DNA of 29,136 nt from an uncultured Candidatus Peribacteria bacterium. GTDB taxonomy: Bacteria > Patescibacteriota > Gracilibacteria > Absconditabacterales > Absconditicoccaceae. Made by a program: the position numbers and the translations under genes. The notes under the pieces were generated by a model. That model was not told the DNA's origin. It made no database searches and worked only from the letters and a program-made list of their open reading frames with translations. The stretch is taken from NCBI GenBank assembly GCA_964394325.1, contig CAYMVT010000001.1, forward strand, positions 1 through 29,136. The letters run 5' to 3'. The number at the start of each line of letters is the position of its first letter. The stretch's first letter is position 1. This document shows positions 7 to 17,557 of the stretch, piece by piece.

Positions 7-80
7 AGGCACCGGCCGGATTCGAACCGGCGAACCAAGGCTTTGCAGGCCTGTGCATTAGACCACTCTGCCACGGTGCC
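7..80 (-). tRNA. tRNA-Cys (GCA)
   Basis: The reverse complement folds as a cloverleaf: GGCACCG/CGGTGCC acceptor stem, CT-GCA-AA anticodon loop, GCCGG-TTCGAAT-CCGGC T-arm, and U73 discriminator (the Cys identity element). No CCA is encoded. Confidence 0.97.
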
Positions 81-4072: not shown

Positions 4073-7618
<3,546 letters not shown>

Positions 7619-11214: not shown

Positions 11215-11242
11215 ACATATTTAGTTTTAAATGTGTAAATAA

Positions 11243-11626
11243 CTATTTCAAAGTAATTGTAGCTCAAGCTTCTTCAAGCTTAGCTTTTATTTCTTCTCAT
11301 TCTTCTGGTTTTGCTCACTCCTTCACAATAGTAGGAGTTTTTTCTACAATCTCCTTAGCTTCCTTCAAACCTAATCATAAAACTTCTTTGATAACTTTAA
11401 TTACTGATATTTTTTGCTGACCAATTTCTGTCAACTCTACATTAATAGTATCAGAAGATCATTCTCATTGTCACTCACCTCAAGCAGCTCCTCCTCATCA
11501 TACAGCTACTGCAGCTGCAGATACACCAAATTCTTCCTCCAAAGCTTTCACAACTTCATTAAGCTCACTAACACTTAACTCTTTCAAAAGATCTATTATT
11601 TTTTGTCAATTTTCTGATATAGCCAT
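11243..11626 (-). CDS. rplL: 50S ribosomal protein L7/L12 (127 aa)
   Basis: [22 protein letters not shown] hinge, [33 protein letters not shown]. Confidence 0.97.
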
Positions 11627-11672
11627 TTTGTTATTTTAATTAATTAGTTAAATAAATATTCAAAAACAGTTT

Positions 11673-12176
11673 TTATTTTTTGCTGATTTGATCAACAGCA
11701 ACCACAAATGAGTGTACAGGGTATTTGATCAAGAAGGCAAATTTTCAAATCAACTCATCCTTTGATGGTAAATTAGCAATCTCCTGAACGTAAGATGCAT
11801 CTTTCCATTCACAGTCAAACCAACCTCACAAATAATCCAAACTACAATTTTTCTTTTCTTTCTTCCAATTAGAAATGGATTTAGCAATTCACTTCAAAGG
11901 AGAAAAATCATCCTCACCAAAGAACAAAGCAATCACGGAACCATCTAAACTATCATGACTAACCTCATCAAGTCAACCATTTGAAGCTGTGAATAAAAAT
12001 ATTCTCTTTTTTATTACACAAAGCTTTCAGCCATTATTATAAACATAAGTTCTAAGATCATTTATTTCATTTACTGATATTCAATACTGCTTCAATAAAA
12101 CAATATTTTTGTATGATTTAATATCAGTTTCATAGTTTTTTACAAGCTCTTCTTTTTGCTTCCTTGTCAAAGCCAT
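11673..12176 (-). CDS. rplJ: 50S ribosomal protein L10 (167 aa)
   Basis: MALTRKQKEELV, INDLR, GKLCVIKKR and IANLPSKDELIGK match L10. It lies directly upstream of rplL. Confidence 0.93.
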
Positions 12177-12401: not shown

Positions 12402-13754
12402 CTAATTAGCACTTCTTTCTCTAAATTCAATTAATATTGGGCATCATATAAATCAAAAATTTTTTCTCAAAGTGTTTATTATTCGTTTTTTAAAAGCAAA
12501 ATTTGCTCGATCCTTTTTGTTTATAAACACAAAAAACTTTGGTGGAGCAGATTGGACTTGAGTCATATAATATATCTTACAAATTTTATTTTTGGTAAAT
12601 TTTGGAGGATTTTCGATTAAAGCTCTATTTATTGTTGTATTCAATTTTCATGTATTAATTTTTTTGTTGAAATGTCATTGTATATCCTCTGCAAACTTTA
12701 ATAATTTATCTAGATTATAGCCACTGGAAGCTGAAATCTGTATTATCGGGACATGACTTATAAATGACAATAATTGTGTTATTTGTTTCATTTTCATAAG
12801 CAACTCTTTCTTTTCCAAAAGATCAGACTTATTTAAAGCTATTATCATAGGCACATTTAATTTTTCTATTTTTGAAATAATTGTTTTATCGTTATGAGTA
12901 ATTCAATTATATACATCAATCAATATTATTGCTACAGGATTTTTGTATTGTATAAGCTTTTCAGTCTTGTTCATAGCAATCTTTTCAAGTCATTTTGTTT
13001 TTGATCTCTTTTTGATTCCTGCTGTATCATACAACACAAATTCAGTTCATCAAAATTCTACATTTGCTTTTATATAATCCAGAGTTGTTCCAGCAGTTTC
13101 TTTCACAGTAGAAACCTCATCTTGTGCAAACTTATTTATCAAGGTAGATTTTCATGTATTTGGAGCTCACACAAAAATAACAGACAAATAATCACCTTCT
13201 TTTTCATTGATAGGCGAAAAGTTATTTTTGATTATATATTTTTGGATAAAATCCTTCAGCTTATCTATTCATTGATCATTGATTGCGCTTACTGGAATGA
13301 GATTATCAAATCATAAACTATAAAAATCTGACACATGCTGCAAGACATCTCCAGAATCATTAGACTTTTTTCTGTTTTTAATATTTCTTGAATGTACTTT
13401 TCAATCAAGTTTATTTACAACAAGAACTGTCTTGTCTTTTTTTCATTCCTTAATTATCATTTCCTTGATCTGTTGATCTTTGGATGTAAGTCATTTTTTG
13501 GCATCCAAAACAAAAATGAGCAAATCACTTTTTTTTATTATTTGCTTTATATATTCAACTTCTTGCTGAAAATCTTCCAATCAAGGACTATCATACAACT
13601 CGGCCAAAAAGTCTTCTTTAGGAAAAAATTTTTCACTTAGTATCTGTCTTGTTGTTCAAGGCATTTCAGTGATTATAGCTCTATGAGATCAAATCAGCTT
13701 ATTAAATATTGTTGATTTACCAGCATTTATATTTCATATTATTCATACCTTCAT
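12402..13754 (-). CDS. der: Ribosome biogenesis double GTPase Der/EngA (450 aa)
   Basis: Two G-domains (GNINAGKST...GTTR...DSPG...NK.D and GAPNTGKST...GTTLD...DTAG...NKSD) followed by a KH-like C-terminus (YYMTQVQSAPPKFFVF...LRKNFGFIGCPI). Confidence 0.95.
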
Positions 13755-14490: not shown

Positions 14491-14515
14491 AACCTATTTT
14501 TTATTAATATAATCA

Positions 14516-14735
14516 GGAGTCTGCTTTTAAAACCCATAATTTACATATATTTGTACAGTGCAAGCAACCTCCAAAAAAACTAAAGCATTGTAAACAAAAT
14601 ACATTTAAAGAACTCGCCCTGTGGAATATTAAAATGTTCTTCACCAAATTCCACAAGGTAAGAACTTTTCCTTTAAATTAAATTAGAGAGAAATTTTGAT
14701 GCTTTTTAAACACTCTCTAATTTAATTTAATTTAA
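14516..14735 (-). repeat. Structured intergenic element, copy 1 (homologous to 17184-17349)
   Basis: Contains an 18-bp perfect inverted repeat (14673-14690 / 14713-14730), an 11-bp helix (14617-14627 / 14648-14658) and a 3' hairpin (14562-14572 / 14516-14526). A 28-mer is 24/28 identical to copy 2. Confidence 0.75.
14527..14604 (-). CDS. Putative small peptide, 25 aa (MYFVYNALVFLEVACTVQIYVNYGF)
   Basis: ATG..TAA frame inside element copy 1. It is homologous to the 29-aa ORF in copy 2 and starts in the same TTCTTTAA-ATG context. There is no evidence of translation. Confidence 0.3.
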   Translation of the reverse strand: MYFVYNALVFLEVACTVQIYVNYGF

Positions 14736-14745
14736 CACCTCAACC

Positions 14746-14773
14746 TCATAATAAATATTTAACAAAAAATAGC
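14746..14773 (-). promoter_or_regulatory. Candidate promoter upstream of element copy 1
   Basis: TTGCTA-N16-TATTAT about 15 nt upstream of the first hairpin. Confidence 0.35.
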
Positions 14774-14791
14774 AAGCAAAAACAAGAGCTA

Positions 14792-15745
14792 TTAAATTCC
14801 TTCGTATCACCAATATTTAATCAAATCAATATCTCTTTTGATTAATCAGTTAGTATGCAATAGATCGTTTATTTTTTTTACTTGAGATTTATATTTTTTC
14901 TTTAGTTTCAAAATGTCTTTTTCTCAAAGTTTCGGAGCTTTTTGAGGCGAAGTAGCAAGATTAAAAATAATTTCTCCTGCCTTTTGCCTTATAGACCAAG
15001 GAATTGTTTTTTTGGCCAAAAATTTAATTTTATTGTTATAAAAAATACGATAAAATGTAGGATACTTCATATAAGATCTAGGATTTGATTTTTTATATTG
15101 CAACTCTATATGTTTTATACCAAGAAAATCAAAAATCTCATTCATTATCTCTTGGTTGTTTTTTTTGAAATCTTCATACAAAAAAACTTTTATATGTTCT
15201 TTTGGGAAAAATTTCAAAAACCTTTTTAAATGCTCTTCAAACTTTATAAATTCAGAATAAAAAAGTAAAGAAGGATTTACACATGTAGATGGAATTTCTT
15301 TTCGCTTTCTTCTTTGATGCTCACTTTCAATAGCACTCAAAAAATCTGTTTTATTTTCTATTAGTTTCTTTGTCAATTGTCAATGCCAACTCTGCAAAAA
15401 ATCCAAAGGCTCTCTAATACCAAACAAAATTTTTGAATCAGGATTAAATTTGTATATATTATAAGCTGCCGTCTTGCTGTATACATAGTTTGTACTTCAT
15501 TCTCAAATTATTTTTGAATTTCAAGATTTTTCAAAAAGCTTCAAATATTCTGATTCATTTCTTATAGAACTTATATCATATACCTTACCATGAAATCTAT
15601 CACTTTCATCTTGCAAATCTGTACTAAAATAATGAGGCTCTTTTGGGTAAGACAAAAAAACATCAGGATGTTGATTTAAGTAATCATGTATAATAGTAGT
15701 TCAACATTTGGGTTCTCAAACTATGAAAAAATTAGGAATGTTCAT
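14792..15745 (-). CDS. PAPS-dependent sulfotransferase (317 aa)
   Basis: MNIPNFFIVGEPKCGTT (5'-PSB motif), LNQHPDVFLS.PKEPHYF, KILFGIREP..FLQSWH (3'-PB-like), YEDFKKN.QEIMNEIFDFLG. Confidence 0.9.
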
Positions 15746-15775
15746 GGAATCAAAAGCTATCTTACAATTAATAAA

Positions 15776-17122
15776 TTATTTTTTGCTATTTTTTTTTGAT
15801 TGCAAAGACTTGTAATTTTTGTGCACAAAAAAATAAACAAGCCCAAAAATGGTCATACTTGGATACACTACCATCCTATCTACAAAACCGTGTAAAACCA
15901 TTCATTCTATACTAAGTCAAACCATCCCCAAAGACATAGCCAACAAAAGCCAAGGCCAAAAATCTTTTCTTTGTTTTTTATCAAATTTATAAAAATAGTA
16001 ATAAAAACCAATCAAACATAAAAACAAATAAATAACAAACCAAAAAATAAATCAGACAATTCAATATTGAACCAAGATCAACAAAAATTGATTTTCTGGA
16101 TTAAATTCTATTCAATCTCATCGATGTGATACAGGTCATACATACCCTGCCTGAGATCACAACACAGGAGCTTGAGTAAACATCTGCCAAGATTCTTGAA
16201 CTTTTTGGAAATGTCATGTATCAGACCACTGTCTTTGGACTACTTGGTCATATCCCACATACACAAAAACAGAAAAAACAAGCAATATAGGCAAAACTAA
16301 ATATACTAACTTTTTCCTAATATTTCTACCATATTCCAAAAGCAAAATAACCAACAATTGGAAAAACCAAGCTCACCATGCAGCTCTTGAAAAAGTACTA
16401 ATTATACTAAAAACATAAAGCACCCACCAAAGCCATGTTTTTGATACAGCTCTTCTTCTCAAAAATAAAACATAAAACATAGGAAAGAAAAACACCAAAA
16501 AAAATCAATAATTAATAGGTCTTTCAAAAAGAACTTGATTACGAGGAAAACCCTGATTTTGTTGTGTATAATAAACTGCTGGAGGAGCCTTTCATACTTC
16601 TCATTCAAATATCTTGTTATCATAACCCAAAGGTCATAATGCTCAAGGCTTTACCATTATTAACATATACCAAAAAAAGGCTATTACCAGCAAAACTTTG
16701 ATAGTCTTTCAAAAAAAGAAAAGTATATTTTCTATTTGCTGATCTTCCAAAAAATTTCATAAATGATAAAAAAGGAAAAAAATCACAAATCACAAAAAGT
16801 CATACCTAAAAGCCATCACATAATCAGACAAACTTGTTCATAGAACAAAGAAATTTATAATAAAAGTCAGTACAACTCATGTAATAAATGTTAGCTCCAA
16901 AAAAAGTATAATTTTGTCTTTTACTATATCTTGTAAATACAATTTAAACTGATAAGCTAAGAAAAAAGCAAGCAAAAGAATTAATATCTCCTTCCAAAGT
17001 CGCAAAATAGTAAATTCCAGTCAGACACCAAAAGTTATAAATGTTTGTAAAAAAAAATGAAAAATCATACCAACCAAAAAAACTTTAGCCCAAAACGAAA
17101 CTGAGAAAAAAACCTTTTGCAT
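15776..17122 (-). CDS. O-antigen ligase / Wzy_C-like polytopic membrane protein (448 aa)
   Basis: Many transmembrane segments, with STFSRAAW, SDTGH...W...QAPVLG.....G and PENQFLLILVQYGIVG. These match the T.SR..W, P.LG.G.G and HN..L..L.E.G.VG patterns, with E in place of the usual His. Confidence 0.78.
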
Positions 17123-17183
17123 TATAATTTATAATATTTTAAGTAAATTTTTTAATAATTTGGTTTAAATTTTTGACACTTTT

Positions 17184-17349
17184 TTAAATAGAGGCCACTT
17201 AAAAAGTGGTAAATTTGGCCTCTAATTTAATCAAAAGAAAAAGATCCATATTCTTTAAATGCAGTTATTTATTGCATTTTCGTTTTTCTTAGAGACTGCT
17301 TGCACTTTACAAGAATATGGAAATGAATACTTTTCAAGCAGTCTCTAAA
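17184..17349 (+). repeat. Structured intergenic element, copy 2 (inverted relative to copy 1)
   Basis: Contains a TAGAGG(CCA).../(TGG)CCTCTA hairpin with inner CCACTT-aaa-AAGTGG, a 14-bp perfect inverted repeat (17289-17302 / 17335-17348) and a crossing helix (17245-17263 / 17301-17321). It aligns to copy 1 over about 160 nt. Confidence 0.75.
17259..17348 (+). CDS. Putative small peptide, 29 aa (MQLFIAFSFFLETACTLQEYGNEYFSSSL)
   Basis: ATG..TAA frame inside element copy 2. FLETACTLQEYGN aligns with FLEVACTVQIYVN of copy 1. Confidence 0.3.
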   Translation: MQLFIAFSFFLETACTLQEYGNEYFSSSL

Positions 17350-17404
17350 TAAACTCTGTTTATATATTTATTTTCTTTATATCTTTTTTGAAGAATTTTT
17401 CAAT

Positions 17405-17550
17405 AAAAAAACCAAGGGGTCGTGGTACTTATTATCTCTACCCCCTATCTACAAAGTGGATGGCTCGATTCTGACAAGTCAGAATATACCGGCCTCCTTT
17501 ATTATAGTTGATGTGGAGGAGATAAAGATAAGCTCACCAACCCCTTAGGA
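17405..17550 (-). ncRNA. Rod-shaped ~145-nt ncRNA, 6S RNA candidate
   Basis: GC-richer than its surroundings. The ends pair into a long closing stem (AAGGGGU..UGGU..CUUAU..UAUCUC with the 3' end), then a central unpaired region, then an apical stem AUUCUGA-CUUG-UCAGAAU. G-U pairs favour the minus strand. It has an upstream TTGAAA-N16-TATTAT and a downstream U7. Confidence 0.55.
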
Positions 17551-17557
17551 TATTTTC

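Follow-up and report, generated by a model that had tools for sequence, protein, structure and literature searches.

The stretch of DNA considered here (the window) comprises 29,136 nucleotides (nt) of contig CAYMVT010000001.1 from an uncultured Candidatus Peribacteria bacterium, and it holds two inverted copies of a short repeated element. We describe the sequence features, ends, and genomic distribution of this element, which is very probably a transposable element of the miniature inverted-repeat kind (MITE). Copy 1 lies on the minus strand, with a hypothetical gene on one side and a sulfotransferase gene on the other. Copy 2 lies on the plus strand; its neighbors are a Wzy_C (O-antigen ligase-like) gene on one side and a 6S RNA-like gene on the other. 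A first, sequence-only reading of the window had pointed to two homologous inverted stretches at about these places, and to blocks that they share, including a core with 24 of 28 positions identical. Both observations hold: the two copies can be aligned along their whole length, and the quoted blocks and the core are present in that alignment. Compared with dinucleotide shuffles, both copies fold better, with z-scores of -3.6 for copy 1 and -5.4 for copy 2.

The first five bases of a copy are TAGAG in subfamily A and TAGTG in subfamily B, and the last five are CTCTA or CACTA. Copy 1 (14514-14719, minus) is a long form of subfamily A with an extra hairpin module; it is placed by an nhmmer match (14517-14722, E 2e-21), by alignments, and by the location of its 5' TAGAG. 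Its 5' hairpin (14684-14719, minus; inverted-repeat search and fold) consists of the left terminal repeat TAGAGAG... and an internal CTCTCTA foot. The stem of this hairpin reaches into the flank, where perfect 18-nt arms occupy 14673-14690 and 14713-14730. The optional module (14608-14670, minus), recognized by repeat counts in the genome, is a hairpin of approximately 50-60 nt with an 11-bp stem, CCTTGTGGAAT / ATTCCACAGGG. The 3' hairpin (14516-14572, minus; fold and family alignment) joins an internal left-end-like arm to the right terminal repeat, and the 3' end is degenerate, reading ...GCAGACTCC in place of ...CTCTA.

Copy 2 (17189-17347, plus) is the canonical form of subfamily A and measures 159 nt. 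It is found by nhmmer with E 2e-44 and scores 172 bits with R1, a covariance model that we built from 21 canonical copies. The sequence and the family statistics place a direct repeat, TA-AA-TA, on each side of it: the left one at 17185-17190 (plus), the final TA of which provides the first two bases of the element, and the right one at 17346-17351 (plus). The 5' hairpin, TAGAGGCC ... GGCCTCTA (17189-17224, plus; fold and family alignment), has an arm and loop similar to an IS5-type terminal repeat. The 3' hairpin, TAGAGACTGCTTG ... CAAGCAGTCTCTA (17290-17347, plus; fold and family analysis), closes with the conserved right terminal repeat, which makes up its last 20 nt.

A dispersed family of elements

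The organism's own assembly consists of 116 contigs and 940 kb (0.94 Mb) and is 97% complete. Used as a query against it, copy 2 yields dozens of matches. Two rounds of nhmmer find 111 matches, which merge into approximately 95 elements, so this is not the two-copy element that the window alone had suggested. Together, these elements cover 14.2 kb, equivalent to 1.5% of the genome and near one tenth of its noncoding space, and 110 of the 111 matches are intergenic. Both ends are present in 48 elements. A further feature is their position within the assembly: 20 elements are no more than 120 nt away from a contig end, which identifies the repeat as a cause of assembly fragmentation. Since the assembly is broken at these repeats, the true number of elements may be higher than counted, and the assembly could have missed a transposase gene.

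The 48 complete elements range from 151 to 337 nt, with a main size class of 156-167 nt. Longer forms measure approximately 205 nt, when they include the module seen in copy 1, or 228-337 nt, when an extra insert occupies the loop of the 3' hairpin. Pairwise identity among the 21 canonical copies spans 54-98% (median 73%); the family is thus old but recently active. The hairpin module is a repeated unit by itself and is not particular to the copy 1 locus, as it stands at the same position in 17 MITE copies and at 9 or more sites outside MITEs. An interpretation of the copy 1 insert as an RNA switch accordingly fails. Among the sites outside MITEs, the module (CCCTGTGGAAT...ATTCCACAGGG) is found at C54:4586, C26:12694, C64:3525, and C29:5957 of the assembly; these four have further conserved context in common, and hence a second repeat family exists.

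The abundance of the family bears on whether the two window copies act as a pair. In a composite transposon, the inverted copies would carry the sulfotransferase and Wzy-like genes as cargo, and the arrangement has the corresponding appearance: the well-conserved 3' ends face outward, and two cell-surface genes lie between the copies. Yet copy 2 is bordered left and right by an intact TA-AA-TA duplication of its own and was therefore inserted alone, the outer end of copy 1 is degenerate, and no matching duplication is present outside the pair. Moreover, some 95 copies on 116 contigs put most gene pairs near copies by chance. We see only a minimal chance that the pair is a composite transposon.

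The family alignment also decides on a coding role. The sequence-only reading had listed a type I toxin-like mRNA among its candidates, and in both window copies an in-frame ATG does open a frame of 25-29 codons at the shared TTTAAATG, with some residues in common. Across the 21 canonical copies, however, the ATG is present in just one, and indels disrupt the frame throughout the family. In addition, approximately 95 intergenic copies with transposon ends are unlike a toxin locus. The alignment, in which no small hydrophobic open reading frame (ORF) is conserved, refutes this candidate, and the probability of a small-protein gene or toxin mRNA is close to nil.

Relatives of the element were sought by several routes. 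A BLAST search with the element against 40 relatives gave no real match, and its internal core found none in JGI metagenome contigs. The conserved 20-mer at the 3' end (GACTTTTTMAGCAGRCWCTA), taken at up to 2 mismatches, occurs 56 times in the host genome; for 300 genomes of the class, the count per genome is 0-2, close to that of the control. A covariance-model search, as proposed by the sequence-only reading, brought further homologs in the host genome, where R1 recovered the family. It was less productive among relatives: in 60 other genomes of the bacterial family, it gave six weak matches, all of them in the complete genome G014 (1.13 Mb), which belongs to another genus. Once aligned, these matches are clearly homologous but decayed. 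Decayed MITE relatives in G014 lie at C1:828720-828885, 605498-605649, and 1112739-1112919 (E 1e-7 to 7e-4; detected by the covariance model only).

The neighborhoods of the elements can also be compared between the two genomes. For 18 elements, both flanking genes are adjacent in G014. The gap between these genes has a median of 264 nt in the host genome and 94.5 nt in G014; the median difference is 176 nt, with G014 the shorter in 15 of the 18 pairs and the genera too distant for the exact target to be aligned. The shorter gaps in G014 fit insertion in the host lineage.

Ends and target sites

The element reads TAGWG... at its start and ...CAGCAGRCWCTA at its end. Its terminal inverted repeats are imperfect (5' TAGWGnnCACTKAAAAA, 3' TTTTTMAGCAGRCWCTA): the 5' sequence TAGTGTGCACTGAAAAA and the reverse complement of the 3' end, TAGTGTCTGCTGAAAAA, agree at 14 of 17 positions. 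We scanned the 3' 20-mer against one genome per species and obtained 92 matching stretches, which are spread over many phyla and can occur several times in a single genome. Genomes with multiple matches include an Ignavibacteria metagenome-assembled genome (MAG), Geminocystis, Trichodesmium, Treponema, and Bacteroidales. In these other phyla, the 20-mer is followed by NN-TA and ends MITEs of 200-400 nt that have an inverted copy at the other end, with matching NN such as CT, AG, GT, and TG. Some elements of 37-38 nt consist of two ISMae6-type terminal repeats only, with TA-NN-TA flanks (L134 and L089; a Treponema MAG and others). Their NN matches in L134 and not in the L089 copies, and they look like minimal hairpin MITEs.

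At two loci, L107 and L143, a transposase gene lies directly within such ends; in L107, an IS5-family transposase, present as its C-terminal half, stops 27 nt before the terminus formed by the 20-mer. A complete element of 1664 bp is present in Geminocystis (L138:1353-3016). Both of its ends start with TAGGGT, its flanks read TACC/TAG...CTA/CCTA, and its 471-aa frame has the domains DUF772 and DDE_Tnp_1_2 and matches NF033578 at 392 bits. The closest annotated plasmid relative of this element is an "IS5-like element ISMae6 family transposase." This annotated ISMae6-family element, from Microcystis, spans L160:270-1955, measures 1686 bp, and has the flanks TAAT/TAG...CTA/ATTA. A length of 1686 bp is also published for ISMae6 itself, a member of the IS5 family of which M. 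aeruginosa NIES-843 has 8 copies (PMC2779907).

The ends and the TA-NN-TA flanks of the window element match those of full IS5/ISMae6 elements, and we therefore read it as a MITE with ISMae6-type ends. The right end of the ISMae6-like insertion sequence (IS), GACTTTTTCAGCAAACCCTA, is alike at 17 of 20 positions to that of the element, GACTTTTTCAGCAGACACTA. At the left end, the IS begins TAGGGTTTGCTGAA and the element TAGTGTGCACTGAA, and a TA-NN-TA repeat at both flanks is common to the two. They differ in content and layout: the element is without a transposase gene and one tenth the size, and an internal inverted copy of the end sequence makes each of its ends a hairpin.

The flanks record the target. 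Every copy is preceded by TA-NN-TAG on the left and followed by CTA-NN-TA on the right, and of 40 complete copies, 26 have identical NN at the two ends, where permutation gives 10.5 (p<1e-4). Between sister copies that are 95-98% identical, NN differs at both ends jointly with the interior unchanged, which shows that NN derives from the target. Head-to-tail abutting elements with one TA-NN-TA in common are found at C31 ~7390-7405, C14 ~17068-17075, and C33 ~7215 of the assembly. This abutment is expected if each insertion recreates a good target at its borders, and new insertions seem to prefer the target that an existing copy has recreated there.

A second pattern links the flank to the interior of the element. 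The left NN is complementary to the dinucleotide that comes after the internal foot in the 5' hairpin, approximately 35 nt inside, in 43 of 58 copies (17.8 expected, p<1e-4). The most frequent combinations of NN and internal bases are AT/AT (18), TT/AA (16), and TA/TA (8), with Fisher p values of 5.5e-6 to 8e-8. As a consequence, the 5' hairpin runs approximately 3 bp into the flank. The extension has no link to the direction of the upstream gene (24/32 vs 17/24). The 3' hairpin displays no comparable coupling: its 5' foot is almost always preceded by TT, and the complementary AA is the right-flank NN of just 4 of 40 copies. The youngest clades have constant internal bases, and their flanks vary yet are biased to the matching dinucleotide. 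Either target choice or copy retention would depend on the pairing of NN. The element's own hairpin might aid the choice of target by base pairing, or copies that do not extend the hairpin might be lost selectively, for instance by re-excision; we offer this explanation tentatively and think it rather unlikely. To our knowledge, neither hairpin-guided targeting nor such retention is known for DDE elements of the IS5-type family.

Hairpins and the partner enzyme

Each end of the element is a palindrome, and this gives rise to its hairpins. The first 8-10 nt are paired with the internal foot in the 5' hairpin, and an internal TAGWGnCTGCTKG is paired with the terminal CAGCAGRCWCTA in the 3' hairpin. 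In terms of origin, the 5' hairpin forms from the left terminal repeat and an internal copy of the right foot, and the 3' hairpin from an internal second copy of the left-end sequence and the right terminal repeat. RNAalifold predicts exactly two conserved helices, which are these hairpins, and no conserved pairing between them.

The sequence-only reading had noticed compensatory differences between the two window copies in both hairpins. These are real and extend to the 21 canonical copies, where 95.7% of cells are paired, compared with 82.7% in shuffles. Cells altered on both sides number 52 against 21.3 in shuffles, none of the 500 shuffles attains the observed value, and slid controls of the pairing test collapse. 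Much of this covariation is the switch between subfamilies A and B. The A-to-T change in the feet (TAGAG/CTCTA vs TAGTG/CACTA) affects all four feet of a copy together, with a few recombinant copies that mix A and B feet. Such a four-foot switch would be expected if the feet are versions of one end recognized by a protein, or simply if the copies go back to two subfamilies, and it would not be needed for an RNA fold alone.

A new class of noncoding RNA, which had been one of the candidates, is thus not needed for the covariation: the hairpins are transposon-end sequence, and their folding has no strand asymmetry. The earlier argument that G-U pairs reveal selection on a single strand does not carry over to the family. 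The sense strand is the more stable in 12 of 21 copies (Wilcoxon p 0.48), and G-U pairs number 7 against 4 A-C mismatches when one inherited G-U pair is left out.

Among the earlier candidates was also a mobile repeat that moves as a single-stranded DNA (ssDNA) hairpin. It is borne out as to mobility; the HUH/TnpA-REP mechanism is not, given the DDE IS5 ends and the target-site duplication. In its full form, this explanation sees the element as a palindrome similar to the repetitive extragenic palindromes (REPs) and BIMEs, or derived from IS200/IS605, and moved as ssDNA by an HUH Y1 (RAYT-like) transposase of the host. It would account for a hairpin at each end, and the genome does encode two Y1_Tnp proteins with the HUH motif. 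The tendency of the flank by the 5' hairpin to pair internally is also loosely like the recognition of a guide sequence by IS608. Nonetheless, the elements have a direct target duplication, which HUH elements are not known to make. Their ends further agree base for base with the terminal repeats of the DDE IS5 family, and the Y1 genes are flanked by palindromes of another kind. We rate this ssDNA mechanism as highly unlikely.

The two HUH Y1 transposases of the RAYT type (Y1_Tnp) lie at C13:1371-1892 (+) and C7 ~11240-11700 (-) of the assembly, and their proteins match NF047646 at 62 bits, under its cut-off of 80. The sequence-only reading had proposed to look for an HUH/TnpA-REP transposase beside copies of the element. 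What flanks these two genes instead is a pair of GC-rich palindromes, GCGCCCGGGCGC, which occurs 4 times in the genome, and CAAGGCCGGCCTTG, which occurs 6 times; they form small REP-like families in a genome of 27.6% G+C. These palindromes differ from the hairpins of the element, and the RAYT-like genes were rejected as its partner. An IS4-family IS (DUF4372 + DDE_Tnp_1, NF033592 at 265 bits) is present in at least two copies (C64 end, C46:1-1134, and C73:449-580) and breaks the assembly. It was rejected as well, its own ends (CACTAsTGTCCCA) being unrelated. A serine recombinase was considered in the same manner, and there is no Resolvase domain in the host genome.

The enzyme that gave rise to the element, or moved it in trans, would be a DDE transposase of the IS5 family and the ISMae6 type (DUF772 + DDE_Tnp_1_2, NCBIfam NF033578). 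It may have been active in the lineage until recently, as sister copies are up to 98% identical, and it would now be lost, unassembled, or supplied from elsewhere.

Taken as a whole, the element has the attributes of a MITE: a size under approximately 600 bp and many dispersed copies, terminal inverted repeats, a target-site duplication, and no conserved coding frame. It also has ends in common with an autonomous IS, through the ISMae6-type elements of other phyla. It does not encode DUF772 and a DDE domain, and is accordingly a derivative, not an autonomous member, of the IS5/ISMae6 group. We conclude with high confidence that it is a nonautonomous DNA transposon, a MITE family with IS5/ISMae6-type ends, that has expanded in this lineage. 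Its kind is ordinary; this particular family is dense and previously undescribed.

Several results weigh against this conclusion. No NF033578-type transposase or remnant was found by HMM and tblastn searches in the 97% complete host genome, and there is none in the complete genome G014. The mobilizing enzyme is therefore deduced from other phyla and not observed. A metagenome scan with a flanking protein and an exact-protein look-up of the flanking gene gave no match. The width of the duplication, as read from sequence, may be 2, 4, or 6 bp within TA-NN-TA. Finally, a plain MITE model predicts neither the complementarity between target NN and internal NN nor the orientation of the copies: between co-directional genes, 31 copies are sense and 10 antisense (p 0.0015).

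This orientation bias suggests selection through transcription; it does not demonstrate a function. It raises the question of whether the repeat, of MITE origin or not, is or became a functional structured RNA or a transcript-level signal kept by the host, such as an outward promoter or a hairpin by which the upstream message is stabilized or terminated. In 15 of the 31 sense copies, the 3' end lies 23-50 nt ahead of the next start codon. The hairpins are well conserved, and flank bases extend the 5' hairpin above chance. Other observations speak against an RNA role. Sense and antisense folds are equally stable, G-U pairs are not in excess past the one inherited pair, and the extension of the 5' hairpin is independent of how the 5' gene is oriented. 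Sites that fit promoter or terminator consensus sequences are no more common than in shuffled sequences, the central region is without conserved pairing, and the copies in G014 are decayed. A search of Rfam with the two window copies and 7 others, at gathering and E-value thresholds, found no match (best 14-25 bits vs thresholds of 37-100), in agreement with the earlier reading, which did not recognize the motif as a named RNA family. On this evidence, a role as RNA is unlikely. For the MITE family, the consequence is that the candidate new structured RNA is struck off, its covarying hairpins being transposon ends.

The host genome and known repeat systems

The genome in which this expansion took place has a G+C content of 27.6%. 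TGA accounts for 4.45% of its codons (long frames counted) and is the main glycine codon. Long frames appear in the window only when TGA is read through, and in the gene for the GTPase Der/EngA (12402-13754, minus), the glycines of the P-loop and of DxxG have TGA codons. From these two observations, the organism uses genetic code 25 (TGA = glycine). Two RNA genes were also located in the window. The 6S RNA-like gene (17405-17554, minus), directly downstream of copy 2, matches the Rfam family RF00013 over the full model at 44.2 bits (gathering 46.4; E 6.6e-7); this near-threshold match probably represents the 6S RNA of the organism, which the curated threshold fails to capture. A tRNA-Cys (GCA) is found at 7-80 (minus) with 64 bits.

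A genome of approximately 1 Mb that reads TGA as glycine thus gives 1.5% of its DNA to one MITE family. The ends of this family are nearly identical to IS ends of cyanobacteria, Bacteroidota, Ignavibacteria, and spirochaetes, without a visible matching transposase. Reduced, symbiont-type genomes can have transposon bursts, and noncoding elements freely cross the boundaries between genetic codes.

The element can be compared with three groups of bacterial repeats. REPs and BIMEs with their RAYT proteins are, like the element, extragenic palindromes in many copies, and RAYT-like proteins are encoded in the host genome. In the account of PMC3733652, REPs measure 20-40 nt and mostly have a GTAG or CGTC tag. 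REPs are without target duplication, whereas the element is an AT-rich unit of approximately 160 nt that has a foot of the form TAGWG and is flanked by a direct repeat. It is not a tagged palindrome of 20-40 nt, and it does not flank the RAYT genes.

The BOX elements of pneumococcus and the Correia elements of Neisseria are co-transcribed with neighboring genes. They resemble the element in that they are modular with optional internal hairpins, form strong hairpins, and lie between genes (in part described in PMC3184786). There is no sequence similarity between them and the element.

The third group comprises MITEs with IS5-type ends: the MaeMITEs of Microcystis, Nezha of Anabaena and Nostoc, ATR of Neisseria, and BrickBuilt/MITEPgRS of Porphyromonas (PMC2779907, PMC3184786, PMC4596501). 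The published descriptions of these families include neither the double-hairpin layout nor the coupling between target NN and internal NN (PMC2779907, PMC3184786, PMC4596501). The internal sequence of the element is also unrelated to theirs, and its host has a genome of approximately 1 Mb with genetic code 25. In other respects, the likeness is extensive. These MITEs and the element are short, noncoding, multi-copy, and intergenic; their terminal inverted repeats resemble the ends of a full IS, direct repeats flank them, and they are predicted to fold stably (PMC2779907, PMC3184786, PMC4596501). The similarity reaches the terminal sequences themselves: the IS5-family ends of ISPg4 (GAGACTGTTGCA) and ISNme1 (GAGACCTTTGCAAAA), given in PMC4596501, have a GAGAC...TTGCA style that resembles the GAGACTGCTTG of subfamily A.

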